Source: Candidatus Woesearchaeota archaeon
Lineage (GTDB): Archaea; Nanobdellota; Nanobdellia; Woesearchaeales; 0-14-0-80-44-23
DNA: 64,000 bases
Direction of reading: 5' to 3'
Assembly (NCBI GenBank): GCA_038874135.1
Contig: JAVZCZ010000001.1
Location: 751,219 to 815,218, forward strand
A model generated the notes under the pieces. The model had not been told where the DNA came from. It did no database searches and saw only the letters and a program-made list of their open reading frames with translations. A program made the position numbers and the translations under genes. Of the stretch, positions 5,942 to 42,585 are shown one piece after another; the first letter of the stretch is position 1; every line of letters starts with the position of its first letter.

Positions 5942-6101
5942 TGAATGCCTGGCATGGGTTGATGAAAAGGTAAAGAATAGAAGCTTTGCTAATCGGAGCC
6001 ACGGCTTTGAATTTTTAATAGCGCGATTCAAGGAGCGCCAAGAACTTCAGAATCTTCTCAACTCGCGAAATTCAAAGGAGGAAGACTTAAAACATGAATA
6101 A
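5910..6101 (+). CDS. Ribbon-helix-helix (CopG-like) DNA-binding protein 2, a tandem paralog.
   Basis: 'QRITITLDSECLAWVDEKVKNRSFANRSHGFEFLI' is paralogous to the upstream RHH. The track start is TTG 5904 and the first ATG is 5910. It overlaps RHH1 by ~32 nt and overlaps the start of the 1180-aa gene by 8 nt. Confidence 0.7.
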   Translation: MKQRITITLDSECLAWVDEKVKNRSFANRSHGFEFLIARFKERQELQNLLNSRNSKEEDLKHE

Positions 6102-9636: not shown

Positions 9637-10457
9637 AGTCAAAAAAATCAGTTAAGTATAGAGCGAGAGTTCACAATAAGGCTAACTCAAGCAAGAAAGA
9701 TTTGAGAAAAAAGAAGGTTCGCATTGAGAGAAAAAATAGCACTAAAACAATTAGTAAAGAAACATCACCTAAAAAATCCAAAGCTTACTTAAAAAAGCGA
9801 TTTGGCAAGATTGATAACAGAGTTATTAAAAATAAAAATAATAAAGTAAAACCAGGAGCTTTAAAGCACAGAAAAAAAGAGAAGAAGCAGAATGTTCAAA
9901 AAAGAAGAAAAGCAATGCAAAAAAAGCCAGCGCCTGAAAACGCAGCCGCAGCAACCAACCAAGTACAGACAAATACGACTTCAACAGCTCAGCAGGCAAA
10001 TTCTCAAATTGAAACACATTCAGATGTGGAAGCGCTTCAAAAAGAATACTCAGATATCAACAGCTATCTGGTTCAGCGAAGAAAAGCGGGAGTTGACACC
10101 TTCATACAGGAACTGAAACTTTTTTCAATACCGTCAAAAATTCAGCTTTTAAAGGCAGAATACTCAAAAGATTATGCTGACAAGATTAGAGTTCAACTTA
10201 ATGAGATTAGAGAAGAGTTAGAAAAAGCAGAACCTCAACCGACCCCCCTTGACCTTCCTAAAGTTCAGCCGAACCAGCCGAATCCATTCTCAGAGCAACA
10301 GCTCACAAGTCAGAATAATAATCATCCCTTAACGCAGGATGCAGAAAACTATTCAAAAGAACTAGCTGAGAAGCGCCTTTCAAATAAAATAAAAAATTCT
10401 CTGAGAAATGCTTCCAAAAAAGTTATGTCCATATTCAAAAAAGGAGGTGGAAATTAG
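9633..10457 (+). CDS. Highly basic Lys-rich protein of unknown function.
   Basis: Long ORF with an ATGA overlap onto the upstream stop and GAGGTG 7 nt upstream of the ATG. The K/R-rich N-terminal half has no recognisable motif. Confidence 0.55.
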   Translation: MKSKKSVKYRARVHNKANSSKKDLRKKKVRIERKNSTKTISKETSPKKSKAYLKKRFGKIDNRVIKNKNNKVKPGALKHRKKEKKQNVQKRRKAMQKKPAPENAAAATNQVQTNTTSTAQQANSQIETHSDVEALQKEYSDINSYLVQRRKAGVDTFIQELKLFSIPSKIQLLKAEYSKDYADKIRVQLNEIREELEKAEPQPTPLDLPKVQPNQPNPFSEQQLTSQNNNHPLTQDAENYSKELAEKRLSNKIKNSLRNASKKVMSIFKKGGGN

Positions 10458-11615
10458 ATGTTCAACCTTTTCAAACGGAAAAACTCTGAAGAAGTTCCCA
10501 ATCAACAATCAGCTAACGAAGATCTGACAGCTCCAGCACAAACCCAGCAAACTGCTACTACGCAAGGACAGGAAAACCTCGCTGCAGAATTAATGAAGAT
10601 TAAGGCAGAAGTGGAAGCATTTTCAGATGTAAGAAAAGCCACAAATGAGAAACTTACAAGACTAAGCGAGCAGATTGGAGAGCTAAGAGCAATGATTGCA
10701 GACAGAGACAAGGTGATGAATCAGATAGAGGTTAAAGCTACAAAGGCAGCAGATCTCGTAGCCACAGTTAAGCCTGAAGAGCAGATGGTAGAAATAAAGC
10801 GTCAGGATGCAAAACTTGAAGCGTTTAAAGCATCTCTGGAGAGCAATGAACTTTTGATGAAGAGAGTTTTAGACGAACTTAAAGAGATGAGAACAAAGAT
10901 AGCTTCCTTCCGCGGAATTGAGGAACTAATCAACCTTAACAATGAAGTAAAATCTGAAATAATTGAAATAAAAAAGGTTGAAGCAAACATACAAAAGCAT
11001 GCAGACAAGGTAGAAACGATATTTGCAGAGGTTCAGAAAAGATTCGTTGACTTTACAAAAATTGATGATAGGATAGCATCCAACACGAAGCAAATAGCAG
11101 AGCTATCAAAGAACTTGGACGGAGTGAAGGCAACTGCCTCGGCAGCAGCCACAAAAAAGAGTGTAGATGAACTAACTTCCAAATTCTTAGAAATGAAAGA
11201 CCAACTCTCAGAACTGGTTTCAACAATAAACAAGCGCCTCTCCTTAGTGGAGAAGAACAATTCTGCAGCATTTGAAGCTTTTGAAAAAGCGATAATGCAC
11301 AAGTTTAAACTTTCAAAAGAGGAAGTAGCTGTATTTAAAGAGCAAGTACAGCAGAATCAGCAAGCCCAGCCAACTCAGCAAATATCCCAGCCGCAGGATG
11401 TCTCTCAAAAGAGCAATACTCAAGAGCAAAATCTTCAGACCAGTGAAGCACCCGAAGCTCTACCACAGCCGCAAGCCTCTCAGCAGGTTCAGCAGCCGCA
11501 GAGTGAGCCAAATGAGCAAGACTCAAAAAAGCCTGACAGCAGCATTCAGAAAGAGATAAGAGAAGCAGCCAAGTTTGCTAAAAGGATAAAAAGCAAAAAA
11601 AGAAAGAAGAAATGA
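10458..11615 (+). CDS. Coiled-coil protein with Gln/Pro-rich termini, unknown function.
   Basis: The ATG follows the upstream TAG directly, and GGAGGTGG lies upstream. Heptad-like E/K/L-rich sequence covers most of its length. The C-terminal tail is basic (KRIKSKKRKKK). Confidence 0.55.
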   Translation: MFNLFKRKNSEEVPNQQSANEDLTAPAQTQQTATTQGQENLAAELMKIKAEVEAFSDVRKATNEKLTRLSEQIGELRAMIADRDKVMNQIEVKATKAADLVATVKPEEQMVEIKRQDAKLEAFKASLESNELLMKRVLDELKEMRTKIASFRGIEELINLNNEVKSEIIEIKKVEANIQKHADKVETIFAEVQKRFVDFTKIDDRIASNTKQIAELSKNLDGVKATASAAATKKSVDELTSKFLEMKDQLSELVSTINKRLSLVEKNNSAAFEAFEKAIMHKFKLSKEEVAVFKEQVQQNQQAQPTQQISQPQDVSQKSNTQEQNLQTSEAPEALPQPQASQQVQQPQSEPNEQDSKKPDSSIQKEIREAAKFAKRIKSKKRKKK

Positions 11616-14600
11616 ATAGCTCCAAATTTTTCAAACTAATAATTTTAGGGTTTATAATAGTGGTAGGTCTCCTAAGCCAGTCAAAAGCAGACAGCATCCA
11701 AGCAGTATATGGCAATACTCAACTCATACTCACAGACAAGCCGCAGTACACTTTGGGAGAAAGTGTAAAGATAAACATACTAATCCCAACACAACTGCTT
11801 TCAGGAATGAATGTTGAAATAGATACCCCTGCTAGCAGATACCAACTTCTTGATTCAAATCTTTCAGAAGTATACTTCACTCCACAGCAAGAGGGAAACT
11901 ATACTATTAAAATATCTTCAGCAGCTGGGAATTTAATATCATCAACTTCTTTTTTAGTACTAAGAAAATCTGAAGTTGAAATTCCCTCATCAGATAGCAC
12001 CAGCCCCAAATTGTCTGCAAAAAACTGGAAGGGAAATTATCAAAAAATACTAAGACAGGAATACCTACCTGCCAACAAGAAGCTTTCAATAGAATTCTCA
12101 GAACTTTCAATACAGAAGATTGATTTTTACAATGTTTCAAATCCGAATGGAGAACTGAAAATAGAAGATGTGCCTCTATCTTATGTTGAAAACTTTTCAG
12201 GAAGAGCAGCGCGCTCATTTGCAATAGACCCAACTTTATTAGAATTTACTTATGCTGAAATTTACTTTACTGCAACTGCCAACGAGCTGTGGAAGTGCCG
12301 CGAATACGACTTCTCAACTAGAAGCTGCGCGGGAAGATATGTAAAAATAATGGACACCATTCCGGGCAGGCAGTATATCTTACACCTCACCAAAGAGGAT
12401 CCTCTCTACACAGAAGTATGGAACAATATAACCTGCACCTGCCAGAATACAGGCCCAAATAACGGCTGGGCATACTGCGAGGTATTCTGTCCGGTCAACA
12501 TTCCAATACCAACAGACGCTTTAGATGGATTCATTCAGATACTAGGCTATAATGTCACCATCACTACATCCTACCCGGCAGGCGGGTACATCACGCCTAA
12601 TTCTGGAATGCACTACGGCTTCTTTGATAGGGACCAGCTGAAAAGCAACGGAAACGAATCCCTAATAGGCTATGTGGCTTATGATGGCCCCGGAACAACC
12701 ACTCAGCTCATATACAACACCAGCATGGCACCGTCTGGAGCATATGCATTTAACAGGGCAAACTGCCCGACTTGGACCTCAGGATACTGCACCTGGTATG
12801 TATTTCTCAACTCAACTGCAAAGAGCAGCAAGGTTAAAAGGCCTGTGACTGTTAATATAACTCTTAATAGCATAAACTGGACTTGGAATTATACAACCCC
12901 TGCGCCTTCAAACATTACAATAAACCTTACAAGTCCAGCAGACAATACTGCCCTCGGATTTAGAAATGTGAATTTTTCCTATATTCCCATTTCAAGTTCT
13001 CCAGTTTCAAACTGCAGCCTTTTTATAAACATTACAGGTAGTTGGAATGCAGTTGCCACAAGCTACTCAATACAAAATAATTCTGTCAACAGTATAAATT
13101 ATACTCTTTCTAACGATGGCGAATACCTCTGGAATATCAGGTGTTATGCTGGAGACATCAGCAGTTTTGCACTATACAACAGAACTCTAATAGTTGATAC
13201 CGCACCCCCTTCAGTCACACTTCTTTCTCCTAACAATAACTCATTTTCTAACACATCTATAATCTCTTTCATTTACAATGTGAGTGACAACTTTAACATT
13301 GCTAACTGCTCATTAATACTGGACAATGTTCTAGTTGCAACTTCATACGCAGTTACTAAATATGTCCCGCAGAATATTACCTACGCGTTATCTAATGGCG
13401 TCCACAACTGGAGCATAACTTGTTTTGACTTTGCAGGCAATTTTAACATTTCCGAAAGTAGGATCATAAATATATCCGCAGTACCTACCATCTGGGACAG
13501 AAGGTGGTATGAAACTTCAACATCAGATTATACCTCTACAGCAAACATTTCTCTCGCAAATTTAAGGGACTCAACAGAAAATTCCATATCCGTTTCAGTT
13601 CCAGTTTCAACATCTTACACCCTTGTAGATGCGATTTCTCCATACATTGGAAGCAACGGGGCATTCGTTCCCAAAGGCACAAATGTATCTTTCAGCGGAG
13701 AATTCTCTACCAGCCCAAATGCAAAGGGAGTTATAAGCTGGTTCTTATACCAGACTGAGGGTTCAACAAAAAACCTTCTCTGTAATTACGGAAATGGCGG
13801 CTCGCTAGGCGCACCCATCTCATCAACAACAACTGCAAGCTGCACTATACAAAATGACACTCTAATGCTCCCAACAAATAGATTACAACTTATTATAATC
13901 TACTATAACAATTTCAAAAATTTAGTGTCTGTAACCCACTATTGGGATGGCACTAGGCTCTCGTTCGTTGAATTTTCAAACTTTACTACCTTAGGAACAT
14001 TAAGCGTTGACCTCTCCTATCCAGACACGGATATAACAGTGGGCCAGAACGAACTGTTCAATATGAGCTGCACAGTTAACTGCTCAGGAGGAAGCTGTCT
14101 TAACACACTCGTCTATGCACAGTATAACACGAGCTCAACGGCATTCACCAACATAGGAAGCTCCGGAAATCTCATTCTTAACACTGGAGAGACAAATCCC
14201 CATTCTCTCGGGAATATCAACCAGAGCTACACTACAACATTCTTAATAAAAGGAAACCTTGCATCAACAAACAACATAAGATGCGTAGCAGTTTCAAACT
14301 ATTCAAACGCTACAGGCCAGATTATAAGAAGGGTAGTTGTGGGGGACACTACGCCTCCAACAGTAAGTCTTGGAAATCCAGCAAACTTTTCTTGGCTGAA
14401 GAGTAAAACAGTAACAATCTATTACACGCCCTCAGACAACAGCGGAATTACTAACTGTTCAATATACTTGAATGATATTTTGAATTATACTCTTAATTCA
14501 GTTCCGAACGGGATTGAGCAGAACTTCACATTCCATAATCTTTCAGACGGACTTTACAATTGGACTGTAGCATGTACTGACAATTCGGCACTAACTACCA

Positions 14601-17600
14601 GGGCAGCTGAAAAATGGTTCTATATAGACACACAGAATCCCTCAGTAGAATTGCACCAGCCGGAAAACTTCATAGTTCTAGGAAGCAGCCTTGTGTTGTT
14701 CAACTTCACTGCATATGACGAAATGGCTTTCAACCTATCATGTAACCTGACAGCTGATAATATAATCAGAATTTCCGGCATAAACTCTCTAAACAGTACA
14801 CCTACAATAGTTAATTACACCCTTTCTATGGGGCAGCACTACTGGAATGTCACCTGTAGAGACCTTGCAGGAAACATTAACACGAGCGAGACTAGAACAT
14901 TTAATATAACAAACACTCCTCCTGAAGTTACCCTCATCTCCCCTCCTAACAACTACTGGGATAGAATAGGCAACATAACATTCATATTTAATGCCACAGA
15001 CACAGGCCTAATTTCAAACTGCTCACTAATAATAAATGGCCAGCTGAACCAGACTAAAAATTCAACTTTCTTAACTAACGGCATAAACAACTTTACTATT
15101 CTAAATATGGAATCGGGAGTTTATCTTTGGGAAGTAAACTGTACTGATGAGGGAAACCTGAGCACAATAGCAGGACCTTTCACGCTAAATGTTGATAAGA
15201 GCGTACCTTCTGTTCAGCTCGTATTCCCATCAAACTACTACAACTCCTCAGCTTCCTCTATTGTTCTGCAATTCATAACTACAGATGCTCATTCAGCAAA
15301 CCTCTCCTGCAACTTAACAATTGATGGCATTCTAAATTCAACAGACATAATAGCCCAAAATAATAGTTTAGTCTCACAGCCCATAACCTTCTATGATGGA
15401 ATTCACAATTGGAGTGTCTCCTGCTCTGATCTTGCTGGAAACCTGAATTCTACAAACACCTGGTATTTCAACATTTCAGAAAAACCTTCAGTATCGCTAA
15501 GCAGTCCTGCACCTAACGCCTGGACTAATGGTAATGTCACTTTCACATTTACAGCGTCTGACAATGACGGGCTTTACAACTGCTCTTTATTAATAAATGG
15601 AGCAGTCTATCAAACAAAGAATTCATCGCAACTTACAAATGGCGGACAGAACAACTTCACTGTAACAAATTTGCTTGAAGGAATAAACCAGCAGTGGACA
15701 GTAATCTGCTTTGATTTGGGAATATACAAGAACTTCTACTCACCATCTACAAGAATATTCCATGTGGATAAAACGCCTCCAGCAATAACTCTTAACTACC
15801 CTGCTGATTCAGCTCAGATAAAACAGAAGAATGTCAGCTTTAATTTCAGCGCCTCAGATAACTTCGCTTCTAACCTCTATTGCAACCTGTCCATAAACGG
15901 CCAGATTAACACTTCTGAAATAGCTGTTCAGTCAGGAAGTTCAGTTATCGTGAATGTTTCAGGATTTCCTAACGGTTTATACTACTGGAATGTCTCCTGT
16001 AGGGATTATGCTTACAATGTGAACTGGAGCGAGACAAATTCTTTTAATGTTTCAGTTCCTCCAGAGGTGTTTTTAGAATACCCCCTTGAAGGGCAGTGGG
16101 ACAATTCTGAGAATGTAACATTTTATTACTTAGTAACATCAAATGCAGAGTTACAGTCATGTTCTCTCATAATTAACGGGCAGTTAAATCAGACTGACAA
16201 TTCTCCAGTTAGTTCAGCATACAACAATTTTACCATTTTCCTAATGCCTGAAGGCTATTACACTTGGATGGTAAACTGCACTGATTCATATTGGCTAACC
16301 GGTTCTTCAAATTTGAGGAACCTCACCATTGACAGACAAGCTCCTTGGATAGTGCTAAATTCTCCTTCTAATTCTTCAATTGTTGACTCTAACTATGTAA
16401 CATTTAACTGGACTGCTTTTGACATGATGGCAGATAATATAAGCTGTGACCTATACGTAGATGATTATTTAAGAGAATCAGAAATATATTCTAAAAATGG
16501 AACACCTACCACTAGAACATACATATACTCTGACGGCACCTACTATTGGAATGTTTCATGTCGCGACCCTGCCTATAACATTAATTGGAGCCAAACTTAT
16601 AATTTCACTGTTGAGGCACCTCCAAATGTCACTCTCATAAGTCCTTCTAACTATAACTGGAGCACCGCTTATAGTATAACTTTTGCTTACTTACCTCAAG
16701 ACCCAATAGGGATAAGACAATGCACACTCTACTTTGATGGAAGCCCTAATCAGACTGATTACGACATAGAAGCTAACCAGCTGAATTATTTCACTATAAA
16801 TCCTATAAGTGAGGGAGTTCATACTTGGAGTGTTAACTGCACTGATTCAGATTGGAATACTTACATGCCGCCAGCCTTTACTCTTTATATTGACCGCACC
16901 CCGCCAACAATTGTTATAGAATCTCCTGTCAACCTGTCTGTTTTTTCAATTCCAGATGTAACCTTCAACTTTACTGCGATTGACATGTTATCAGATAATA
17001 TTTCGTGCAAAATAACTATAAATGGTAATTTGAACAGAACTATAACAGTACAGAATGATACTCCTTACAATTTCACGATTGTAAAAATGTCAGATAATAT
17101 CTATTATTGGAATGTGTCCTGCTCAGATTTAGCCGGAAATGCAAATGCTAGCAACACCATGCAGTTTACTGTAAGCGCTATTCCTTCAATAATTCCCATA
17201 TCGCCTGCCAACTTAAGTTGGAGTGAAGTATCACAGATAACATTTTACTTTAATGCAACCGACAACGATGGGCTTTCTAATTGCACTTTACTAATTAATG
17301 GTGTAGCAAATCAGACAAAATCTTCAGGTTTAATAAATGGTGGCATAAACAATATCACTTCTACTCTTACTGAAGGAGAATATGATTGGAGTATCGCTTG
17401 TACAGATTCGGGCATATTCTATAATCTCAACTTGTCCGCTCCTCAAAAGATTTTTGTTGATCTAAATTCCCCGCTGATTGTTCTTTACGCCCCTCTCAGC
17501 GGTAGCATTACTGAAAATAATTCTCCAGTTCTAAATTTTACTGCTTCAGACACGATGTACCCAATTATGTATTGCAACATTACTCTTGACGGAAAATTGA

Positions 17601-18652
17601 AACAATCTTATATTGAATTATATAACAACACACCTTATGCAGAAGCTACCTATAATTTATCTGCAGGAACTCATTACTGGAATGTTAGCTGCTGGGACTA
17701 TGTAAACCATACGGGCTTTAGCGAAACCTGGAACTTTACAGTTCCACTGCCAGACATCACAGTTTCAGCAATTGAATTCATTTATAATACCACAAACCCA
17801 GAAGAAGGCAAACAGCTGATGATAAATGCAACTGTAGAAAATTTAGGGAAGTCCAATGCAAACAATTTCTTAGTGCAATTCTTTGACGGAAATCCCGAAG
17901 ATGGGGGAATTCAGATTGGAAACAATATAACAATGAGTTTACAGCCGCTATCTGCTTCATACGCAATTATGAATTGGACTGCCTCCTTGGGAACTCACAA
18001 TATATTCGTGCTAGTAGATCCTCCAATAGCAACCAATGGAACGGTACAAGAAGAAAATGAGAGTAACAACATAGCTAATAAAACAATACTCATACAAAGT
18101 TGGCATTTCATCTACGGTAACCTTAGCGGAGAATTAGGACTTAGCAGCCAGCTCTATTCGCTGTTATTCCTCTGGAATGTTAGCGACGCCAACAATAGTA
18201 ATATATTTGCAGTTGACTCTGACAGCAATATTGATTGGGGAAGTCTAAAACCATTAGGATTGGATGTGAATAATCAAGCATCTCCCTACGACTTTTCAGT
18301 TCTAGACCAAAAACTAGGTATGTCAAATTATGAAGATTCAATAAACTCAACTTACACCGAGGGAGAATCTCCCAAAATGACAGAAACATTTACAATATAC
18401 GGAAAGCAGATAGAAAATGTTCCGGTAGCATATTCAATTAACAGCTCCAATTTTAAAACAGGAATACTGTGGGACACTTCCGATGGGAACACATACTTTA
18501 ACGGAACTCAGGATGTAGTTTTTGTAACTAAAACCAATATGAACGCACAGGGCAGTTTTGATCAGACAGACTACGAAATGCGCATCCCATCTAACTTGAA
18601 AAATTATATTGGCTCAAATCCAACAGTAGCATTATACTTAGAGATAAGATGA
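11612..18652 (+). CDS. Giant (2346 aa) secreted/surface protein with 14 Ig-like modules, a CARDB-like domain and a conserved C-terminal domain.
   Basis: The start makes an ATGA overlap with the upstream gene. The N-terminal hydrophobic signal is FFKLIILGFIIVVGLL. There are 14 modules of ~95 aa, each ending in a W-x-[VI]-x-C-x-D-x-AGN-like motif (e.g. YWNVTCRDLAGNINTSE). 'PDITVSAIEF...NLGKSNANNFLVQFFDG...ENESNN' is CARDB-like. N-x-S/T sequons are extremely dense. Confidence 0.85.
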   Translation: MNSSKFFKLIILGFIIVVGLLSQSKADSIQAVYGNTQLILTDKPQYTLGESVKINILIPTQLLSGMNVEIDTPASRYQLLDSNLSEVYFTPQQEGNYTIKISSAAGNLISSTSFLVLRKSEVEIPSSDSTSPKLSAKNWKGNYQKILRQEYLPANKKLSIEFSELSIQKIDFYNVSNPNGELKIEDVPLSYVENFSGRAARSFAIDPTLLEFTYAEIYFTATANELWKCREYDFSTRSCAGRYVKIMDTIPGRQYILHLTKEDPLYTEVWNNITCTCQNTGPNNGWAYCEVFCPVNIPIPTDALDGFIQILGYNVTITTSYPAGGYITPNSGMHYGFFDRDQLKSNGNESLIGYVAYDGPGTTTQLIYNTSMAPSGAYAFNRANCPTWTSGYCTWYVFLNSTAKSSKVKRPVTVNITLNSINWTWNYTTPAPSNITINLTSPADNTALGFRNVNFSYIPISSSPVSNCSLFINITGSWNAVATSYSIQNNSVNSINYTLSNDGEYLWNIRCYAGDISSFALYNRTLIVDTAPPSVTLLSPNNNSFSNTSIISFIYNVSDNFNIANCSLILDNVLVATSYAVTKYVPQNITYALSNGVHNWSITCFDFAGNFNISESRIINISAVPTIWDRRWYETSTSDYTSTANISLANLRDSTENSISVSVPVSTSYTLVDAISPYIGSNGAFVPKGTNVSFSGEFSTSPNAKGVISWFLYQTEGSTKNLLCNYGNGGSLGAPISSTTTASCTIQNDTLMLPTNRLQLIIIYYNNFKNLVSVTHYWDGTRLSFVEFSNFTTLGTLSVDLSYPDTDITVGQNELFNMSCTVNCSGGSCLNTLVYAQYNTSSTAFTNIGSSGNLILNTGETNPHSLGNINQSYTTTFLIKGNLASTNNIRCVAVSNYSNATGQIIRRVVVGDTTPPTVSLGNPANFSWLKSKTVTIYYTPSDNSGITNCSIYLNDILNYTLNSVPNGIEQNFTFHNLSDGLYNWTVACTDNSALTTRAAEKWFYIDTQNPSVELHQPENFIVLGSSLVLFNFTAYDEMAFNLSCNLTADNIIRISGINSLNSTPTIVNYTLSMGQHYWNVTCRDLAGNINTSETRTFNITNTPPEVTLISPPNNYWDRIGNITFIFNATDTGLISNCSLIINGQLNQTKNSTFLTNGINNFTILNMESGVYLWEVNCTDEGNLSTIAGPFTLNVDKSVPSVQLVFPSNYYNSSASSIVLQFITTDAHSANLSCNLTIDGILNSTDIIAQNNSLVSQPITFYDGIHNWSVSCSDLAGNLNSTNTWYFNISEKPSVSLSSPAPNAWTNGNVTFTFTASDNDGLYNCSLLINGAVYQTKNSSQLTNGGQNNFTVTNLLEGINQQWTVICFDLGIYKNFYSPSTRIFHVDKTPPAITLNYPADSAQIKQKNVSFNFSASDNFASNLYCNLSINGQINTSEIAVQSGSSVIVNVSGFPNGLYYWNVSCRDYAYNVNWSETNSFNVSVPPEVFLEYPLEGQWDNSENVTFYYLVTSNAELQSCSLIINGQLNQTDNSPVSSAYNNFTIFLMPEGYYTWMVNCTDSYWLTGSSNLRNLTIDRQAPWIVLNSPSNSSIVDSNYVTFNWTAFDMMADNISCDLYVDDYLRESEIYSKNGTPTTRTYIYSDGTYYWNVSCRDPAYNINWSQTYNFTVEAPPNVTLISPSNYNWSTAYSITFAYLPQDPIGIRQCTLYFDGSPNQTDYDIEANQLNYFTINPISEGVHTWSVNCTDSDWNTYMPPAFTLYIDRTPPTIVIESPVNLSVFSIPDVTFNFTAIDMLSDNISCKITINGNLNRTITVQNDTPYNFTIVKMSDNIYYWNVSCSDLAGNANASNTMQFTVSAIPSIIPISPANLSWSEVSQITFYFNATDNDGLSNCTLLINGVANQTKSSGLINGGINNITSTLTEGEYDWSIACTDSGIFYNLNLSAPQKIFVDLNSPLIVLYAPLSGSITENNSPVLNFTASDTMYPIMYCNITLDGKLKQSYIELYNNTPYAEATYNLSAGTHYWNVSCWDYVNHTGFSETWNFTVPLPDITVSAIEFIYNTTNPEEGKQLMINATVENLGKSNANNFLVQFFDGNPEDGGIQIGNNITMSLQPLSASYAIMNWTASLGTHNIFVLVDPPIATNGTVQEENESNNIANKTILIQSWHFIYGNLSGELGLSSQLYSLLFLWNVSDANNSNIFAVDSDSNIDWGSLKPLGLDVNNQASPYDFSVLDQKLGMSNYEDSINSTYTEGESPKMTETFTIYGKQIENVPVAYSINSSNFKTGILWDTSDGNTYFNGTQDVVFVTKTNMNAQGSFDQTDYEMRIPSNLKNYIGSNPTVALYLEIR

Positions 18653-21600
18653 AACGCAGCATAACTTTTGGAATAATTTTTCTACTTTTAATAGCATTAT
18701 CTCTAAAAATTTCCAGTGCGAGCTGTCCGGAAATAATACTTTCATCCAACACCACTATAAAAGATGTAGATATAAAAATAAAAGTTTCAGGGCAGACACA
18801 AGAGTCAGAATTAGTGATAAGAACGCCTTCAGGTCCGTATCGTCTTTTAGGAGATATTCCTTCCCTTACAAGCTTTACTCCAAAAGATGTAGGTAACTAC
18901 TCTGTTGAAGTTTGGCAGGACAAAGTGCTGTGTGACATAAAAAATTTTACCGCACTACCTCACAATAACTCGACACTATTCCTTCCGCCAATACTTTCCA
19001 CAGATAAAAAAGAATACCACTTAGGTGAAGCTGTTAGAATTTCACTCTCACCAGAATATTACGGTTACTCAATTGAAGGTTTAAATTTAAAACTGTTGAC
19101 AGGACAGCAATCCTACTCTCTCTTAGGGGAAATATCTGAGGATATAGAATTCCGACCTGTTTTTGAGGGTAACTATACAATTCTCTTATTAGACTCCATT
19201 GGAAATACTCTTGCTTCTGAAAGCTTTTCCGTCTACGCTTTGAATAGTTACTTTGTTAATAACTTATCTATTAAAAAACGATTTTCGGACAAATTTGAAT
19301 ACAACATCAGCACTAATTCAGAAGACATGATTGTTGAATTCTCAAACTCCTTCATTAAAAGACTAAACCTAAAGAAACTATCTTCAAGTAATCTGGCGAT
19401 AGTTAGGATTTCAGAGTTACTGCCGGAAGAGAGGAGCCGTCTGAATATTCCTACAATTGGAGGTGAAATTAAAGAATCTTTTGAATTAGATCCTTCCGCC
19501 CTAAACTTTTCAGAAGGTGAACTAACAATTGTCCCTTCAGGAAATGAGCTGTGGAAGTGCACTGATTGGAATTATGATGCTCAGTATTGTGTCGGAAGTT
19601 GGATCAAGCAGCAGAATCTTGTTCCCGGTGTTGAAAATGTAATTAAGTTTAACCTTTCCGATCCAGGATATGCTATTGTTGCAACTGCTAACATAACTTC
19701 AATAGCAGCAGCAACCCTCTCTGAAAACTCTTTTGTAGTAGCATATTGCGATGATACAAATGATAGAACTGCTTTCAAGGTTTTCTGGGCTAATGGGAGT
19801 GTAAGAACTAATGAGGTGATAGTTGATTCAACTACTGGAAATTGTGGTTACACCTCAGTTTCTGTTTCAGCACTTACCAACAACTCTTTTGTTATCGGAT
19901 GGATTGATACTGCCAGCAGTTATGCCAGCTTCGCTGTTTATGATGCCTCTGGAAATGTTATTACTCCAAGGGTGGATGTGGATACTACTGCTGGTACTTC
20001 CCGTTCTGTGAGTGTGTCTGCTTTTAATAGTTCTGCTTTTGTTTTTGGTTGGTATGATCAGGCTTCTGCTTATGCTTCTTTTAGGACTTTTAGTTCTTCT
20101 GGTGTGGCTATTTCTTCTGTTGTTAATGTGGATACTACTGCTGGTACTTGTAATGCTGTTTCTGTTTCTGCGGTTAATTCTTCTGCTTTTGTTTTTGGCT
20201 GGTATGATCAGGCTTCTTCTGATATGACTTTTCGTACTTATACTTCTTCTGGCGTTGCGATTTCTGCCGTGACTGATGTGAATACTAAGGTGGGTACTGG
20301 TTCTTTTTCTGTTTCTGTTGCTGCTTATAATTCTAGTGCTTTTGTTATTGTTTGGTATGATCAGAGGCTGGGTTATGTTAGTTTTCGTCAGTATTCTGTT
20401 GCTGGTGTTCAGATTGGGAGTCAGGTTAATCCGGATACTGCTGTTGGGACTACTGCTTCTGGTGTTTTTGTTTCTTCTGTTGGTGTGAATTCTAGTGTTT
20501 TTGCTGTGGGTTGGAATGATTTGACTACTGATGTTGTTAGTTCTGTGAGGACTTATAGTGGTGCTGGTGCTGCTGTTTCTTCTGAGGTGGTTGTGCAGGC
20601 TAATGCTTTGAAGTATAATGCTCTTGCCGGCTACTACCCTGCTACAGGCATAGGTTTCTGCAATGGAAACTTTGTAGCAATAATTGTTAATACTTCTTCG
20701 CAGGCATTTTTTAAAGCATACATGCCTAATGGAAGCGAATGGGACGGAAACTGTCCTGATGTTATACCGCCTCAAGTTGTTCTGAATAGTCCTCAGCAAG
20801 CCGCTGTCTTCTATAGTGATACTGTGGATTTTAATTTTACAGTAACCGACAATGTAGATTTAGTAATTCCAAACTGTACCCTTTGGATAAACACTTCATC
20901 AACATTCTCTCCAAACATAACAATTTACAATATAACCTCTAATAAGATGAACAACATAACTCTATCTCAAATTCCAGACAACAAATACATTTGGAATGTC
21001 AGGTGTTATGACAATGCAGGCAACTCAGCATTTGCTTCTTCAAATTTTTCATTATTTATCAACAAGAATCCACCTCAAATCTTGAACCCCCTCCTGAATG
21101 AAAGTACAGTAAATCAGAGCCATTCAGTAAAGTTTAATGTCTCAATAACCGATTCATATGGTATAGACTCTGCATATATAACTATGATGTACCCAAACGG
21201 TTCATCAAATAATTATTATCTTAATAGAAGTGGGAATGAATTTTACTTCATAATTAATAATACAATCCAGATAGGAACATATTCTGTGATATATGTGTGG
21301 GCTAATGATACCCTCGGACAAAACTCTTCTCTAACCCTTTCAGATCTCCAGTTTAATGTCACGCCTTCACCACCTGCTCAATTCAACCTTTTAAGTCCCC
21401 CGAATGCAACAGAGTCAACAAACCTGCGACCAAACTTGACTTGGGAGACATCTTACGATGAGACATTCCTTAATTATACTATTCAGATTTCTCAGGATGA
21501 AAACTTCGCAACAGTACTCTTTACATATTATAATCCGGGTGTTTATAATACTTCAAGAGTGCTGGATTATGCCCTAGAAGCGAATAAGAAATATTACTGG

Positions 21601-24600
21601 CAAGTTATTGCATACGACACCTTTGGCAATTATAAATATTCAACAAATTACTTCTCATACATAACTGACACTTTGGCACCTTCCATCGTGCTAAATATGC
21701 CGGGAAATCTTTCATTCATAAATTCTACACAAGTCAACTTTACATTTACACCTTCAGATGCTAACACGATATCAAGATGTACTCTCTACCTAAATGTCAC
21801 AGGAGCATTCCTCCCTAACACAAGTATAACTCAAGTTGTTAAAGACACTCCAAATTTAATACAAGCTGAAATTAAAGATGAGGGCGCCCACTTGTGGAAT
21901 ATCCTGTGTAATGATAGCGCAGGAAATTCTGCGTTTGCTCCTCAGAACTTCACCTTTATTTCAGATCTTAACCCGCCCTCAATACAACTATTAAGTCCTC
22001 CCAACGGCAGTACATACAACATTTCCAATTTTGTAAATTTCACTATAAATGCATCTGATAGGATATCCGCAGTATACCGCTGCACACTCATAATAAATGG
22101 ACAGCCCGTTCTTACTTCTTATTCTGTGCAGGACGGAGTGCCATACACATTTCAGTATTTCTTGCTGAATGGAAATTACTCCTGGCAGGCAGAATGTTAC
22201 GACTTAAACGGTCATTCAAACCTTTCTTATTCCTACAACATTTCAGTTTTAGTTATTGATTCAGTACCTCCAATCGTAACCTTAACTAGCCCCGCACAGG
22301 ACCAATACCTTTCCAGTAAAACAGTACTATTCAATTATACTCCGCAAGACGCTACTGGAATAAAGAACTGCACCCTATTTATTGATGGCAATGAAAACGA
22401 AACTGACTTTTCTGTTAGGAACTTGGAACCAAACTACTTCTTATTAGAATACTTAGAGGACGGGGTTCATAACTGGACTGTGCTCTGCTTTGACAATAGC
22501 AGCCAGCAGAACAGCTACGCACCCACCCCTGTAAGGTTCTCAATAGATACAACTCCGCCATCAGTAATTCTTATCTCTCCAGAAGATGGAGTTCTTACTA
22601 ATAATTCTCTAGTCACCTTTGTATACGCACCATCAGATGCAAATCTTGAAAATTGCTCCCTCTACACTAATTCTTCTAGCGAGTGGATGATGGAATCAAC
22701 AGACTTCTACCCAATTAATAATCAGCAGAATGTTTTTCAAAAATCAGTTGCGGATGGAGTTCTCGTTTGGAATGTTGTTTGTTATGATAAGGGCGGGCTC
22801 TCCAGCTTTGCTGACTTTAACCGAACATTGAATGTTGATACAACTCCGCCGCGATACGCCAATATAACTCTGATCCCGACAAGCCCAACTGAATATTCAC
22901 CTTATGGGGAGTATTACTTTAATATAACATGGATTGATGATTTTAATTTGTCATCTGTATATTTTGAGAGCAACTTTTCAGGAACCTTTGAGAATGAGAG
23001 TCCCAACCACTTTGAAAACATTTACTATGTTCACAAGACAGGTCTTAACTCAGGAACATACCAGATTAGGTGGTACGCTACTGATTCGGCAAAAAATCAG
23101 AACGAAACCCCGGCAATTCAGTATGATATAACTAAAGCAGAGCCTAACCTTACTTTAAAAATAAACAATTATTCTTATAATTTGACTGTTGAGGAAGATA
23201 GCATAGTTAATATCTCAGCAGAGCTCTTAGAGCCACCCGGAGCATACCTCTCTATTTATATTAACAATAATCTCATTACTAACGGAACTTCTCCTATTTA
23301 TACTACTTACAACTTTACAGAGCCTGGATCTTATAATGTTACTGCGAGCTTTGAAGGAAGCCAAAACTACCTTTCAGCATTCAGAACAATAATTGTAAAT
23401 GTCTCAGACACTACACCCCCAATTATAGTTCCCATCTTCCCGCAGAATAACTCATTCATAGGGGAAAATCACATTGTATTTTCTTACAATGTAACTGACA
23501 GCAGCCAAATTGCCAACTGTTCTTTATTCATAAATAGAACATTAAACCAGAGCAATACCAGCATACAGAATGGAATAAACTACTTTGAAGTTGACTTTCA
23601 AGATGGCAACTACTCCTGGCACCTCTCCTGTTATGACGAGTTTTCAAACTATGCTGAAAGCCCGGAGATATACTTCACTTCAATAAGGTCAGATAAAATA
23701 ATTGCTTCAGCACATCCTCAACAGCCGCAGTACCAAAAGGGTGAAACGGCAATACTTATAGGAAATACTACGAGCATCTTCGGAACACCATTAGATACAA
23801 ATATTTATGCTAATGTAATAAGAGGCAATACTACGATAGAATGGTGGAACACTTCATTCAAATACAGAAGGCCTATATTTATAAATAACTCAATGAACGC
23901 TTCAACATACTTGCAGGCGCTAATCAACATTTCAAACCTTAGCGCTTCAATTTCTAACTGTTCTGAACTCAGAATTGTAATGAACAACTCTTTTGAGCAC
24001 ACCCTAATCCCCTCAGAAGTACTCTTAGAAGAGGGAAATGCTTCGTGCCTGCTAAGATTTAATGCGAATGCTTCTGCACTCGCCACGAATGAGAACAACT
24101 ACTATGTATATTACGGAAACTCAGGAGCAGGAGCCCAGCAGCAGCTTCCAGAACTTGCAGGCATATCAGTACAGCGTAAGTCTGTTGTGGGAACTACAAC
24201 TTCAATCACTGATACGATGAGTGAGGTGAATACTTCAAGAGCGTTCCTGCTTTTCAGCGCCAATGTCGCCAGCTCAACTCCTGCAGTTTGGGAAATAACG
24301 GGAAGAATATTATCCTCAACGCAGGTAGTGTTTGAAAGATACTCGGGAACCACATCTGCAAATATATCCTGGCAGGTTATAGAAGGCTCAGAGATTAATG
24401 TGCAGAGGGGAACCGCATCATTTGGAGCTACACAATCAAATACTACAATACTTATAGATAGTGTTAATCTAAACGAGTCTTTCATAATAATAACCGGAAG
24501 GACCAGCAGCACCACAGCAGGGAATGCAAACATGGGCTTCTTTAGGGCAATGTTCCTTAACTCTACTGCAATTTATATTGAAAGGGCTACAACTGGAAGC

Positions 24601-26487
24601 ACTGCTGTTGCAGAATGGCAGGTAGTTTCGTGGAGTGGTGCGAGAGTGCAGAGTGGAAACATCTCTTTCATAACAGCTTCGCAGAGCGTCCCCATAGAAG
24701 AGGTTAATCTTTCCAGGAGCATGCTGATATTCAGCACTGCTGTAACTGGCAACACCAGGATAGGAGCTAACATGATTTTTGGCAACTTTACCAATTCCAC
24801 AACAGCATACTTCTCAAGAACGAATGCTGCAGGAACAGCATATGTTTCCTGGTTTGCAGTTGAGCTTCCCCAATACTACTCAGTACAAGCCGGAACAGTT
24901 TCAATCACAGCAGATACCAATGTTCAAATATACCCCGTGCGCACTGAGAAGACATTTCATCTGCACTCAGCTTCAGCAGTAGGAGCAACCAGCACTACCT
25001 ACTCTGATGCCCTAATAAGAGCCGAGCTAACAAATAGCTCAAATCTTATGCTGGATAAGGTGTCTGGCACAAATACCAACTATGTTGCCTGGTTTGTAGT
25101 AGAAGAAAAATATCTTTCAGCTAATTCGGGAATGGAAGAAGCTTTAATGGCATACAACTACAACTCCACATTGACAGGGCTTTACACTCTAAGTTGGGTT
25201 TCCGGAAAGAGCCCGGTGGGCAACTACACCTTTGTATACTCTGCAACAAAAACTAATTACTCATCTGCAAGGGCATACTCCACATTTGAGATAATTCCAG
25301 ACACAACTCCGCCCAATGTTACGCTTGTAAGCCCACTTCAACTTGAAAAGAGGGGCGTCGGAAATATAATCTTTTCCTACATACCTTATGACTTGAACCT
25401 TCTAAACTGCACACTCTACCTTGGAAAGGACGGAACTTTTTCTCCGAACATTACGAGCACGAGTCCAATAAATAATGCAGTAAACAATCTTTCAGTATAC
25501 TTAGACATCGGATTATACACTTGGAATGTGCTTTGTAGGGACAGTGAAGGAAACTCTGCATTTGCTCTGCAGAACAGGACACTTAACATAACAGGCCCAG
25601 ACCTATACCCTGTTGCTGTTTGGTTTAGCAACACGCCCAGGATTGAGACCGTTAACACAACCATCTTTGTTAACATTTCTAATAAGGGGCTTTCTGATTG
25701 TACTAAAAACTTCACTGTTGAGTTCAGGAGAAGTGGGCTGCTCATAGGCAATCTGAGTGTGCAGGGGCTGCTGATTGGCGAAGTTAAAAGCTTGAACTCT
25801 TCATTCCTGTTAGGTCCCGGCATTAATAATTTAAGTATTAGCATAGATCCTGATAACAGGATTAACGAGTCGGACGAGTCAAACAACAATGCTTATGAGG
25901 TTATTGCTGTTGAGTTTTATCAGTACTATTACGGAAATCTTAGCTTTTTACAGGTTTTGAGCAAGTCCTCAAACGAGTCTGTATTCACTTGGGAAAATTC
26001 AAATCCTGAAGATGGGGTTATTTTAGTTGCTGATATTGATTCAAAATTTGAGATTGGAAACTTAAGAGCCCTGACTCGGAATGCAAATGGGGATCCAGTT
26101 ATAAATGATCTTTCAGAATTGGATGAGGCTTTTAATTCTTCAAATCTTAACGATTCTATTAAGAATGTGTGGGGAAACGGCACTGACATTCCAATAATGA
26201 CTGCCAACTTTACGATAGGACAGTTTAATATTTCTAACGTTCCGGTAGCATATTCCAGAAATTCCACTTCTTCAATTACGGGAATACTCTGGGACTCTGC
26301 AGATGATTTAAGCCACAACCTTCAGTATGACAGCTCTGATAGGGAAGATATAGTTCTAATCACAAAGATTCACCCGTTAGCAGACTGTTCTTTTGGTAGC
26401 TGCAATTATGAGATAAGAATTCCAGCAGCTCTACGCTCTTACAAGCCTAACACCGACCTCGTAGTTTTTTACACCATGCTAAACTGA
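18649..26487 (+). CDS. Giant (2612 aa) secreted/surface protein, a paralog of the 2346-aa gene. It has a propeller-like repeat region, Ig-like modules, a DUF2341-like region, four ~85-aa repeats and CARDB.
   Basis: ATGA overlap start. The N-terminal ~330 aa and C-terminal ~350 aa are homologous to the 2346-aa protein (e.g. ELWKCTDWNYDAQYC vs ELWKCREYDFSTRSC). Repeats of ~45-51 aa with F-V-x-G-W-x-D run over ~19670-20720. 'WWNTSFKYRRPIFINN...NNYYVYYGN' at ~23840-24125 is DUF2341-like. A CARDB-like stretch lies at ~25600-25900. Confidence 0.85.
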   Translation: MKRSITFGIIFLLLIALSLKISSASCPEIILSSNTTIKDVDIKIKVSGQTQESELVIRTPSGPYRLLGDIPSLTSFTPKDVGNYSVEVWQDKVLCDIKNFTALPHNNSTLFLPPILSTDKKEYHLGEAVRISLSPEYYGYSIEGLNLKLLTGQQSYSLLGEISEDIEFRPVFEGNYTILLLDSIGNTLASESFSVYALNSYFVNNLSIKKRFSDKFEYNISTNSEDMIVEFSNSFIKRLNLKKLSSSNLAIVRISELLPEERSRLNIPTIGGEIKESFELDPSALNFSEGELTIVPSGNELWKCTDWNYDAQYCVGSWIKQQNLVPGVENVIKFNLSDPGYAIVATANITSIAAATLSENSFVVAYCDDTNDRTAFKVFWANGSVRTNEVIVDSTTGNCGYTSVSVSALTNNSFVIGWIDTASSYASFAVYDASGNVITPRVDVDTTAGTSRSVSVSAFNSSAFVFGWYDQASAYASFRTFSSSGVAISSVVNVDTTAGTCNAVSVSAVNSSAFVFGWYDQASSDMTFRTYTSSGVAISAVTDVNTKVGTGSFSVSVAAYNSSAFVIVWYDQRLGYVSFRQYSVAGVQIGSQVNPDTAVGTTASGVFVSSVGVNSSVFAVGWNDLTTDVVSSVRTYSGAGAAVSSEVVVQANALKYNALAGYYPATGIGFCNGNFVAIIVNTSSQAFFKAYMPNGSEWDGNCPDVIPPQVVLNSPQQAAVFYSDTVDFNFTVTDNVDLVIPNCTLWINTSSTFSPNITIYNITSNKMNNITLSQIPDNKYIWNVRCYDNAGNSAFASSNFSLFINKNPPQILNPLLNESTVNQSHSVKFNVSITDSYGIDSAYITMMYPNGSSNNYYLNRSGNEFYFIINNTIQIGTYSVIYVWANDTLGQNSSLTLSDLQFNVTPSPPAQFNLLSPPNATESTNLRPNLTWETSYDETFLNYTIQISQDENFATVLFTYYNPGVYNTSRVLDYALEANKKYYWQVIAYDTFGNYKYSTNYFSYITDTLAPSIVLNMPGNLSFINSTQVNFTFTPSDANTISRCTLYLNVTGAFLPNTSITQVVKDTPNLIQAEIKDEGAHLWNILCNDSAGNSAFAPQNFTFISDLNPPSIQLLSPPNGSTYNISNFVNFTINASDRISAVYRCTLIINGQPVLTSYSVQDGVPYTFQYFLLNGNYSWQAECYDLNGHSNLSYSYNISVLVIDSVPPIVTLTSPAQDQYLSSKTVLFNYTPQDATGIKNCTLFIDGNENETDFSVRNLEPNYFLLEYLEDGVHNWTVLCFDNSSQQNSYAPTPVRFSIDTTPPSVILISPEDGVLTNNSLVTFVYAPSDANLENCSLYTNSSSEWMMESTDFYPINNQQNVFQKSVADGVLVWNVVCYDKGGLSSFADFNRTLNVDTTPPRYANITLIPTSPTEYSPYGEYYFNITWIDDFNLSSVYFESNFSGTFENESPNHFENIYYVHKTGLNSGTYQIRWYATDSAKNQNETPAIQYDITKAEPNLTLKINNYSYNLTVEEDSIVNISAELLEPPGAYLSIYINNNLITNGTSPIYTTYNFTEPGSYNVTASFEGSQNYLSAFRTIIVNVSDTTPPIIVPIFPQNNSFIGENHIVFSYNVTDSSQIANCSLFINRTLNQSNTSIQNGINYFEVDFQDGNYSWHLSCYDEFSNYAESPEIYFTSIRSDKIIASAHPQQPQYQKGETAILIGNTTSIFGTPLDTNIYANVIRGNTTIEWWNTSFKYRRPIFINNSMNASTYLQALINISNLSASISNCSELRIVMNNSFEHTLIPSEVLLEEGNASCLLRFNANASALATNENNYYVYYGNSGAGAQQQLPELAGISVQRKSVVGTTTSITDTMSEVNTSRAFLLFSANVASSTPAVWEITGRILSSTQVVFERYSGTTSANISWQVIEGSEINVQRGTASFGATQSNTTILIDSVNLNESFIIITGRTSSTTAGNANMGFFRAMFLNSTAIYIERATTGSTAVAEWQVVSWSGARVQSGNISFITASQSVPIEEVNLSRSMLIFSTAVTGNTRIGANMIFGNFTNSTTAYFSRTNAAGTAYVSWFAVELPQYYSVQAGTVSITADTNVQIYPVRTEKTFHLHSASAVGATSTTYSDALIRAELTNSSNLMLDKVSGTNTNYVAWFVVEEKYLSANSGMEEALMAYNYNSTLTGLYTLSWVSGKSPVGNYTFVYSATKTNYSSARAYSTFEIIPDTTPPNVTLVSPLQLEKRGVGNIIFSYIPYDLNLLNCTLYLGKDGTFSPNITSTSPINNAVNNLSVYLDIGLYTWNVLCRDSEGNSAFALQNRTLNITGPDLYPVAVWFSNTPRIETVNTTIFVNISNKGLSDCTKNFTVEFRRSGLLIGNLSVQGLLIGEVKSLNSSFLLGPGINNLSISIDPDNRINESDESNNNAYEVIAVEFYQYYYGNLSFLQVLSKSSNESVFTWENSNPEDGVILVADIDSKFEIGNLRALTRNANGDPVINDLSELDEAFNSSNLNDSIKNVWGNGTDIPIMTANFTIGQFNISNVPVAYSRNSTSSITGILWDSADDLSHNLQYDSSDREDIVLITKIHPLADCSFGSCNYEIRIPAALRSYKPNTDLVVFYTMLN
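19969..20624 (+). repeat. Propeller-blade cassette copy 1. This 656-bp block is identical to 30550-31205, and its coding strand is G+T-rich.
   Basis: Base-by-base reading matches at an offset of 10581. Three reading frames translate identically in the ORF track: the sense frame, antisense 19867..20799 vs 30460..31284, and +frame 20012..20227 vs 30593..30808. Line 20041-20100 contains 7 A and 9 C out of 60 nt. Confidence 0.95.
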
Positions 26488-42279: not shown

Positions 42280-42585
42280 TTACTCATATGCGGTTAACTT
42301 CTTGTTCTTCGCCCTTCTAAGCTTTTCTCTTATTAGGTCAATCTTCTGGCTGCAAGTTGGGCATAGCATTATTATGTTTGAGAACTCATCTTTTCCCCCG
42401 CTGGCAATAGGAATTAGATGAAAGAAGTGGCACTCCTTCAGCCTTACGGGAGTTTTGCAGTTCGCGCATCTTAAGGTTATTTTCTGCTCGTGTCCACACT
42501 CAGAACATCTTATAATACTATTCTCCAGAAACTCTAAGATTACTGAGCGCTTCACCTGCTTGCTCATACTTAGATATACTTGCAC
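42280..42585 (-). CDS. HNH endonuclease-like zinc-finger protein.
   Basis: 'CSECGHE...CANC' together with 'HLIPIASGGKDEFSNIIMLCPTCSQK' gives the H-N-H pattern with flanking Cys pairs. Confidence 0.65.
   Translation of the reverse strand: MQVYLSMSKQVKRSVILEFLENSIIRCSECGHEQKITLRCANCKTPVRLKECHFFHLIPIASGGKDEFSNIIMLCPTCSQKIDLIREKLRRAKNKKLTAYE

Follow-up and report, generated by a model that had tools for sequence, protein, structure and literature searches.

Concerted evolution of two paralogous gene pairs in a Candidatus Woesearchaeota archaeon, with A and C excluded from the coding strand of the shared tracts

The window analysed here is a stretch of 64,000 nucleotides (nt) from a Candidatus Woesearchaeota archaeon (assembly GCA_038874135.1, contig JAVZCZ010000001.1, positions 751,219 to 815,218 of the forward strand). 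It carries two pairs of paralogous genes, and within each pair the partners share an internal block, here termed a cassette, that is identical in both genes and in which nearly every codon ends in G or T. The genes and cassettes are listed below in window coordinates, with protein lengths in amino acids (aa).

4021-5176, plus strand: cassette 1, first copy, 1156 nt, the ATPase core of a 793-aa HerA-like ATPase (open reading frame (ORF) 3183-5564).
8201-9356, plus strand: cassette 1, second copy, in a 1180-aa HerA-like ATPase (ORF 6094-9636), identical to 4021-5176.
18649-26487, plus strand: first host gene of cassette 2, encoding a 2612-aa giant with a signal-like N-terminus, a propeller and then Ig-like/CARDB domains.
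19969-20624, plus strand: cassette 2, copy in the giant, about 4.4 β-propeller blades, third base 98% G/T.
30160-32418, plus strand: second host gene of cassette 2, encoding a 752-aa protein whose N-terminus is signal-like and whose N-terminal part forms a seven-bladed propeller.
30550-31205, plus strand: cassette 2, copy in this small secreted 752-aa paralogue, with the same letters as 19969-20624.

The two copies of cassette 2 agree at 656 of 656 nt, all 92 adenines included, at an offset of 10581, and the match stops at either edge. Both copies are in the same codon phase and each lies inside a complete ORF. The identity of the flanks is 50-70% within 100 nt and about 25% farther out. The original prediction, which was made from the letters of the window, had proposed the 656-nt identity, its offset and the shared codon phase, and these are reproduced exactly. 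Its description of a sharply bounded block between less similar flanks also stands, as does that of a second cassette with the same signature, unrelated in sequence to the ATPase cassette and identical in two genes. Cassette 1 is an exact pair of 1156 nt with 97% G/T at the third base, and its flanks have no homology on either side.

The third base of the 219 codons of cassette 2 is T in 174, G in 41, C in four (TCC, GGC, GGC and GCC) and A in none. In the remainder of both host genes 0.482 of third positions are G or T (n=2926), and against this background the probability of finding at least 214 G/T-ending codons among 218 is 9.5e-62. Within the stretch 19741-19800, six of 20 codons end in A or C. 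The counts for the cassette and for 19741-19800 all repeat those given earlier, and the depletion of A and C on the coding strand that had been claimed from them is supported by the comparison with the host genes. A profile of composition along the window gives four G/T-ending islands, which are both copies of cassettes 1 and 2, and the pattern (KNN)x58 (K, G or T) has 353 matches in the window compared with 0 in shuffles.

Both cassettes use nearly one codon per amino acid, namely GCT, GGT, CCT, ACT, TCT/AGT, GTT/GTG, TTG, CGT/AGG and ATT in addition to those NNT and NNG codons that leave no choice. In the native genes the leading codons are GCA, GGA, ATA, AGA, TCA and CTT, and several of those used in the cassettes are the rarest. 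NNR codons are all NNG and NNY codons all NNT. The coding rule is that A and C are kept minimal as far as the protein permits; within this rule T is favoured over G, except after T, and T is placed at third positions unless it would alter the amino acid, in which case G is used. Of 47 leucine codons 43 are TTG. The ratio of CGT to AGG is about 1:1, as it is in every ATPase tract, compared with about 1:4 for CGN to AGR in native genes, and a ratio of 1:1 is expected if codons of equal A/C content are equivalent. For alanine GCT outnumbers GCG by 24:2, although GCA is the commonest alanine codon of the native genes. At codon position 2 of cassette 2 C is undepleted at 36%, and A makes up about one-fifth of positions 1 and 2. 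The retention of C at position 2 implies that the bias passes through a filter set by the coding sequence, unlike a simple sweep of deamination. G+C makes up 21% of third bases in cassette 2, 44% in cassette 1 and 30-51% in native parts.

The choice between T and G also depends on the following codon, in that G-ending codons amount to 3% before a codon starting with T compared with 13-16% before A, C or G. Avoidance of oligo-T terminators was considered as the factor that shapes this choice and was rejected, as the opposite is seen: G at the third position is rarest before T, and runs of five to seven T are present. These runs lie on the coding strand of the cassettes (4023-5174, 19969-20622) and also in the tracts of the comparison loci L006, L009, L010, L011, L012 and L014, and judged by sequence they are possible archaeal transcription terminators inside genes. 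At the 5' end of the tracts the onset of the signature coincides exactly with the onset of identity. In some tracts (5154-5176; L006, 6865-6888) the signature is missing from the final ~25 nt at the 3' end (AAA CGC CTT TCA ...), and the difference between the two ends is a possible hint at a polarity of the process.

Within cassette 2 three strings recur at a distance of 150 nt (19978/20128, 20031/20181 and 20050/20200, and likewise in the second copy), and the original prediction had taken such strings to indicate homogenization inside the block. The quoted strings do recur at this distance; homogenization within the block is, however, not needed to explain them. Neighbouring blades of an orthologue that has not been recoded are equally alike (81% over 86 nt), and long identical runs between blades arise because blades that are already similar are written in a two-letter wobble alphabet.

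The protein of 752 aa has no Pfam match. An AlphaFold model of its residues 1-407 (pLDDT 88.7, pTM 0.87) contains a signal-like helix followed by about seven four-stranded blades in a ring, and cassette 2 spans roughly blades 3-7 of this model. The best Foldseek matches against the PDB are β-propellers, with E values down to 6e-9, and comprise the prolyl-oligopeptidase propeller, sialidases, fucose lectins and WD40 types. The confident model and these matches bear out the term 'propeller', which had been given to the block from its sequence.

NCBI assemblies of Candidatus Woesearchaeota encode both the 752-aa protein and the 1180-aa ATPase without any difference. The window is 99.8-99.9% identical to two of these assemblies and is itself neither of them. 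The 90% cluster of the 752-aa protein has members in at least seven metagenome-assembled genome (MAG) records. The full gene is present in four MAG assemblies, on contigs of 909956, 495644, 252076 and 53617 nt, and several other MAG records end inside it, as a repeat would predict. Equivalent pairs are also found on ENA and JGI contigs. An assembly artefact, in the form of a collapsed or mis-joined repeat, was considered and rejected since the full locus is found in at least four NCBI assemblies, the pairs recur in other species and variants between strains inside the block are carried by both copies.

The few differences between strains fall mostly on both copies at once. In cassette 1 the third-position T/G variants at 4538/8718 and 4697/8877 are each present in both copies. 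In cassette 2 a G to T change at 20289/30870 is found in both copies in two strains, and a C to T change at 20233/30814, replacing Arg by Cys, in both copies in one strain; T is taken as the derived state here because the Arg is conserved elsewhere. A T to G change is found at 30645, a site whose counterpart in the other copy is uncovered. Only one difference between the two copies of cassette 2 in the same genome was seen, a private G to A change at 20561 (GGT to GAT), in the disfavoured direction, which is carried by the giant's copy in strain JAVYQW and is missing from the copy in the small gene. The sole derived non-synonymous variant common to both copies is a C to T change, and the sole private variant a G to A change. 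Exchanges between T and G account for four of the six variable cassette sites, compared with six of the 64 flank sites that vary between strains (Fisher P ~0.003).

A scan of species-representative genomes led to a second species of Woesearchaeota (JBNAUL010000001.1), in which a 2891-aa giant and a 685-aa paralogue 13.9 kb apart share 747 nt with one mismatch. The tract is 99.9% identical between these paralogues and their flanks 23-48%. Its third bases are T in 218-222, G in 19-21, A in 4-5 and C in 1-2 codons, and A occupies 41-45% of third positions in the rest of the genes. This propeller tract is only 75% identical to cassette 2 of the window. A third lineage (L009) has a comparable propeller tract, and in L005, which belongs to the same species as JBNAUL or a very close one, the contig ends inside the tract. 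When the proteins are aligned, the flanks group as giant-type versus small-type across species, and the tract groups by species. In JBNAUL the tract sets in about 1.6 blades sooner than in the window, the small gene having received a giant-type blade, and stops one blade sooner; in the window it is the giant whose last blade is of the small type. The edges thus differ between lineages, yet the G/T-ending signature and the identity always end together.

The pattern of the ATPase pair is present in three or four further species. The paralogues are identical within the genome over a core of 1066 nt in L010 (an ENA contig) and of about 1220 nt in L014 (a JGI contig), and those of L011 (JBNAUL) share 1246 nt with two mismatches; these tracts are 100% G/T-ending. 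A further locus, L013, starts inside the second ATPase copy. Between species the ATPase tracts are 78-84% identical, and their synonymous third-base differences are exchanges of T and G in 61 of 73 and 51 of 58 cases, whereas the ATPase flanks show the usual mixed spectrum of substitutions.

Paralogues within a genome (100% and 99.9% identical) are thus closer to each other than tracts are between species (75%, and 78-84% for the ATPases), new variants reach both copies, and a discrete tract with diverged flanks has limits that shift from lineage to lineage. This shows that the tract is old, conserved across species and continuously maintained by gene conversion. The earlier picture of a recently pasted cassette is not borne out, given that the tract has been maintained across species and is 75% identical to that of JBNAUL. 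Persistence of the signature through 16-25% nucleotide divergence, with T/G exchange as the main synonymous change, means that no single or recent event produced it.

The range of the signature was examined in a metagenomic survey of the ATPase core that comprised 80 homologues, with a check for paralogue pairs on the 45 loci of at least 10 kb. Only the three closest of the 80, at 94, 86 and 74% identity, have the signature, and one is intermediate (0.77). Homologues that are at most 62% identical have 0.37-0.65 G/T at third positions, save two loci at 0.17-0.20. In these two (L057 and L062, with 17-20% third-position G/T) the coding strand is A/C-rich over many kb, and the low value is a general property of the genome and not a cassette. 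The sole other paralogue pair among the 45 loci (L074) has a nucleotide identity of 72%, a K of 0.47 and ordinary composition. About 1.07 Mb of fetched DNA was also scanned for tracts of 80 or more codons of which at least 95% are NNK, and on the coding strand only these two gene pairs were found; the matches on the minus strand are, at a guess, low-complexity tails of plus-strand genes. Signature and homogenization co-occur both along genes and across the phylogeny.

Two observations on composition elsewhere may be added. A period-3 excess of A/C on the plus strand, the mirror of the cassette signal, is seen at 9376-9576 and 9806-10063, the former being a T/S/Q/K-rich tail behind the ATPase core. 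Stretches of A/C excess like that at 9376-9576 also occur in L018 (3082-3393), L019 and L026/L027, and these are assumed to be similar low-complexity tails. The second observation concerns L004 (27-2882; GCA_026394965.1, JAPLZQ010000095.1), which encodes a Cys-rich protein of three tandem units of ~220 aa, with patches at codons 241-330, 361-435 and 601-645 that are 80-93% G/T-ending. Homogenization between the tandem units was considered as the cause of these patches and set aside, as there is no clean fit with the most similar parts of the units.

The direction of change into cassette 2 was read from a codon alignment with the orthologue L003, which has ordinary codons and 68% amino-acid identity. 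Synonymous third-base changes are C to T in 36 cases, A to T in 14, G to T in 10, T to G in six and A to G in four, with none to A; the preferred third base is T, and G is tolerated. A scheme of A to G plus C to T had been proposed at the outset, and of this the C to T part holds as the leading change, whereas A to T outnumbers A to G. The accompanying claim of an amino-acid shift in the propeller block is contradicted by signature-free orthologues, which already read FVFGWYDQ. G/T at positions 1 and 2 is 0.71 and 0.45 in cassette 2 compared with 0.67-0.69 and 0.40-0.42 in these orthologues, and propeller blades are naturally rich in V, S, A, G and F. The claim fails for cassette 2 and is nevertheless right in spirit, the shift being strong in the ATPase tract. 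Here G/T at positions 1 and 2 reaches 0.67-0.71 and 0.61-0.64, compared with 0.495+-0.026 and 0.469+-0.017 in 28 signature-free homologues. Lys makes up 2.8% and Ile 2.3%, compared with 10.1% and 7.0% in signature-free homologues, while Arg (11.9% versus 5.3%) and Val (12.7% versus 7.1%) are more frequent, as is Gly. The content of Lys, Ile, Asn, Gln, Thr, His and Met is reduced by half or more, and replacements of Lys by Arg and of Ile by Val pile up. The force acts on nucleotides and not on codons as such.

In a clade of Candidatus Woesearchaeota, which are DPANN archaea, gene conversion has thus sustained concerted evolution of the two gene pairs over a long time, coupled to a persistent force that keeps A and C off the coding strand of the tracts. 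A drive linked to conversion is our best guess for the cause of the bias, and the explanation as a whole, a gene-conversion tract combined with a conversion-linked and strand-asymmetric drive, is in our estimation about evenly poised between right and wrong. In such a drive conversion would start preferentially at an A or C of the coding strand. A possible trigger would be deamination to hypoxanthine or uracil, which might stall archaeal replicative polymerases or be nicked, and the damaged stretch would then be recopied from the partner gene. The A/C allele would be overwritten by the T/G allele and not vice versa, and the initiating alleles would in this way erase themselves, a behaviour that resembles the erosion of recombination hotspots. 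Those A and C that protein selection retains at positions 1 and 2 would keep firing events, and the copies would stay identical. The ratio of T to G would be set by the ordinary AT/GC pressure of each genome. A drive of this kind would account for the coincidence of the edges, the near-complete signature and a flux confined to T and G; for the continued identity of the copies, because protected A and C at positions 1 and 2 keep firing; and for the dependence of the T:G ratio on genomic GC. Uracil or hypoxanthine in the template causes the family-B polymerases of archaea to stall (PMC2794169, PMC3575838, PMC8596578), and uracil inhibits the family-D polymerase (PMC3627576).

Put more specifically, the tracts may reflect an undescribed, strand-specific 'keto-biased' conversion that starts at A or C of one strand, for instance once their deamination has been sensed by polymerases or repair nucleases, rewrites tracts into a T/G wobble alphabet and reshapes the protein, a proposal that we hold tentatively and somewhat short of even confidence. 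A stronger variant of it would add a dedicated homogenizing machinery.

Several points weigh against a conversion-linked drive. Nothing here shows an initiator of conversions. No gene for a deaminase, nuclease, reverse transcriptase or recombinase was recognized near the locus by Pfam, which was run on the larger ORFs across the window, or by NCBIfam and PHROGs, which were run on the ORFs around the cassettes. A drive started by lesions is symmetric unless one strand is more exposed, and the sole sign of asymmetry is that in all cases seen it is the coding strand that is rich in G and T. That T is preferred to G where C or G precedes (GCT >> GCG, GGT >> GGG), and where the next codon starts with T, is not predicted. 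The propeller tract is almost without an amino-acid shift, whereas that of the ATPase tract is large. Finally, the density of polymorphism is no lower in the cassettes than in the flanks, which is unexpected if only rare T/G changes are allowed and hints at an unusual mutation process inside the tracts.

A first alternative is adaptive recoding, in which selection keeps the paralogues identical, as parts of the same oligomer or for the same partner, and favours a structure-free G/T strand preferred by RadA, thereby raising conversion. The cassettes are indeed poor in predicted secondary structure: over 450 nt the predicted folding energy of single-stranded DNA is -9.8 (sense) and -8.1 (antisense) kcal/mol for cassette 2, compared with -50.9+-4.7 kcal/mol in native codons, and -24.6 and -13.1 kcal/mol for cassette 1, compared with -51.7+-4.6 kcal/mol. 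Since Watson-Crick pairs join a keto and an amino base, sorting these onto separate strands removes self-complementarity. Segregation of purines and pyrimidines would, however, remove it equally, and structure alone does not explain the choice of G and T. RecA, Rad51 and archaeal RadA reportedly prefer GT-rich single-stranded DNA, and HerA-like ATPases form rings. Long-lasting concerted evolution in prokaryotes is mostly found in subunits of complexes and homo-oligomers (PMC6053082), and the phylogenetic co-occurrence of signature and homogenization is also in keeping with recoding. However, second-order selection that drives hundreds of synonymous sites to 98-100% is hard to sustain in small populations, all the more as it must also have turned Lys into Arg and Ile into Val within a conserved ATPase, and recoding offers no reason for the tolerance of T runs of five to seven, which may be terminators. 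On balance adaptive recoding is considered unlikely.

A second alternative is hypermutation, by which a cassette passed once or repeatedly through a single-stranded DNA or RNA copy with A to G and C to T deamination and was then pasted into both genes. It would explain why the bases lost are A and C on one strand only and why NNR codons are all NNG and NNY codons all NNT; the replacements of Lys by Arg and Ile by Val in the ATPase are A to G changes, and one of the strain variants is C to T. Four-fold sites, however, end in T and not in the expected G (GCT:GCG 24:2; A to T 14 versus A to G 4), and C makes up 36% of position 2. The signature has, moreover, persisted through 16-25% divergence with T/G exchange as the main synonymous change, and neither a reverse transcriptase nor a deaminase was recognized nearby with Pfam, NCBIfam and PHROGs. 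Hypermutation followed by pasting is judged distinctly improbable.

A third alternative, translational or overlapping-gene selection, holds that T/G endings tune the speed of decoding or keep an antisense or alternative frame open. NNT codons would all be read by G34 tRNAs via wobble, and long antisense ORFs lie over all four tracts, with that of the giant as example:

19867-20799, minus strand: antisense ORF of 310 aa that spans cassette 2, with counterparts at 30460-31284, 4005-4895 and 8191-9075.

These antisense ORFs are by-products of the codon bias, as the in-phase antisense frame has no stops because NNA codons are absent. An open antisense frame requires only three codons to be avoided, and T/G flux at third positions would alter the first base of every in-phase antisense codon, which would prevent the conservation of any overlapping protein. 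Positions 1 and 2 and the amino-acid content are likewise subject to the force, and the signature is confined to the conversion tracts within genes, which leaves selection of this sort very improbable. The last alternative, a foreign donor with G/T-ending codons (a virus, plasmid or other organism) or a synthetic or assembly artefact, might be suggested by a codon table that looks designed, with nearly one codon per amino acid, and by the sharp boundaries, but is for practical purposes refuted by the presence of the locus in at least four independent assemblies and of the pattern in other species and other samples, by blades orthologous to those of relatives with ordinary codons, by viral contigs that gave no relatives when scanned with the cassette peptides, and by tracts that evolve in place with edges differing between lineages.

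Known systems resemble conversion with a strand-asymmetric drive in part. In the concerted evolution described for prokaryotes (tuf, mtrA, amo; PMC6053082), as here, paralogues are closer than orthologues, the events recur and the products are parts of assemblies. Here, however, only an internal segment is involved and the partners are otherwise of different architecture; the G/T signature of one strand is a further difference, the text of that account containing neither 'biased gene conversion' nor 'GC content' (PMC6053082). GC-biased gene conversion is likewise a non-adaptive drive linked to recombination that can bring synonymous sites near fixation and even change amino acids and that is confined to recombining tracts, but it favours G and C symmetrically on both strands, whereas G and T are favoured on one strand here. 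The excess of G+C on both strands that it would leave is not seen in cassette 2, in which third-base G+C (0.21) is below that of the flanks. The asymmetry of vertebrate mitochondrial DNA, caused by deamination of the strand that is left single-stranded during replication, is similar in that one strand becomes G+T-rich by loss of C and A, most strongly at synonymous sites. That asymmetry is genome-wide, graded and driven by transitions, involves no paralogue and stays far from 98-100%, whereas the tracts here are sharp blocks of 0.6-1.2 kb.

Segments of surface genes are copied between loci in Borrelia vlsE/vls and Neisseria pilE/pilS, as here, and the coding strand of vls cassettes is G-rich and strongly skewed. 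In the conversion of bird immunoglobulin genes a base deaminated by AID starts the event. In vls and pilS silent donors diversify a single expression site, whereas here two complete, expressed-looking genes end up uniform, and an ATPase core is treated in the same way as a surface domain. Promoterless silent donors and variants between clones, which mark systems of that type, do not fit cassette 2, as both copies lie in complete ORFs and the strains differ at only 1-4 sites. Diversity-generating retroelements, which are common in DPANN archaea, also involve two near-identical repeats, of which one or both lie in surface genes, and adenines confined to positions 1 and 2. Their repeats measure ~100-200 nt compared with 656-1250 nt here, where C is avoided too and no reverse transcriptase (RT) lies nearby; no RT domain was found in the ORFs scanned with Pfam, NCBIfam and PHROGs, the rest of the genome not having been searched. 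Differences at template adenines, which define these elements, are missing from cassette 2, in which 656 of 656 nt match, the 92 adenines included. Hypermutation by deaminases (APOBEC- or ADAR-like, or RIP) would be seen as transitions only, at any codon position, and this is not what the alignment to L003 shows, with A to T 14 versus A to G 4, C at 36% of position 2 and later exchange of T and G.

In a literature search conversion tracts with G/T-ending codons were not found to have been described. Concerted evolution and gene conversion are known, and a strand-specific keto bias imposed on them is unprecedented; the mechanism behind it has a substantial chance of being new as well. If the coupling between conversion and bias holds, a force linked to recombination and distinct from GC-biased conversion can bring 98-100% of synonymous sites to fixation and, within a conserved ATPase, exchange Lys for Arg and Ile for Val. 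It would also link base damage, polymerase stalling and recombination in archaea. Outliers in codon usage or composition within a gene are usually read as foreign DNA, whereas those described here are home-grown, and long NNK runs on the coding strand are a signature by which conversion tracts can be found in uncultivated archaea. The pairing suggests that the giant and the small secreted paralogue, and likewise both membrane ATPases, must keep matching domains, which would be a clue to how these symbionts build a cell-surface apparatus.

The surrounding genes encode giant Ig-like/CARDB surface proteins, the two membrane HerA-like ATPases and unannotated proteins, and the neighbourhood appears to resemble a cell-surface apparatus of DPANN archaea. 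A 2346-aa ORF (11612-18652) contains tandem Ig-like repeats at 13404-17170 with a period of 561-576 nt and 60-72% identity; their codon composition is ordinary, and they are therefore divergent repeats without the signature. On the minus strand at 42280-42585, beside a topoisomerase gene and ~10 kb from cassette 2, lies an ORF of 101 aa whose counterpart in L092 and L093 matches Pfam HNH/HNH_5. A search of the window with Rfam gave no known RNA in the cassette and only four tRNAs, which lie elsewhere. Two of the tRNA matches on the plus strand, at 52008-52093 (86 nt) and 52139-52245 (107 nt), exceed the 71 positions of the model. These longer matches probably contain introns, which are common in archaeal tRNAs.

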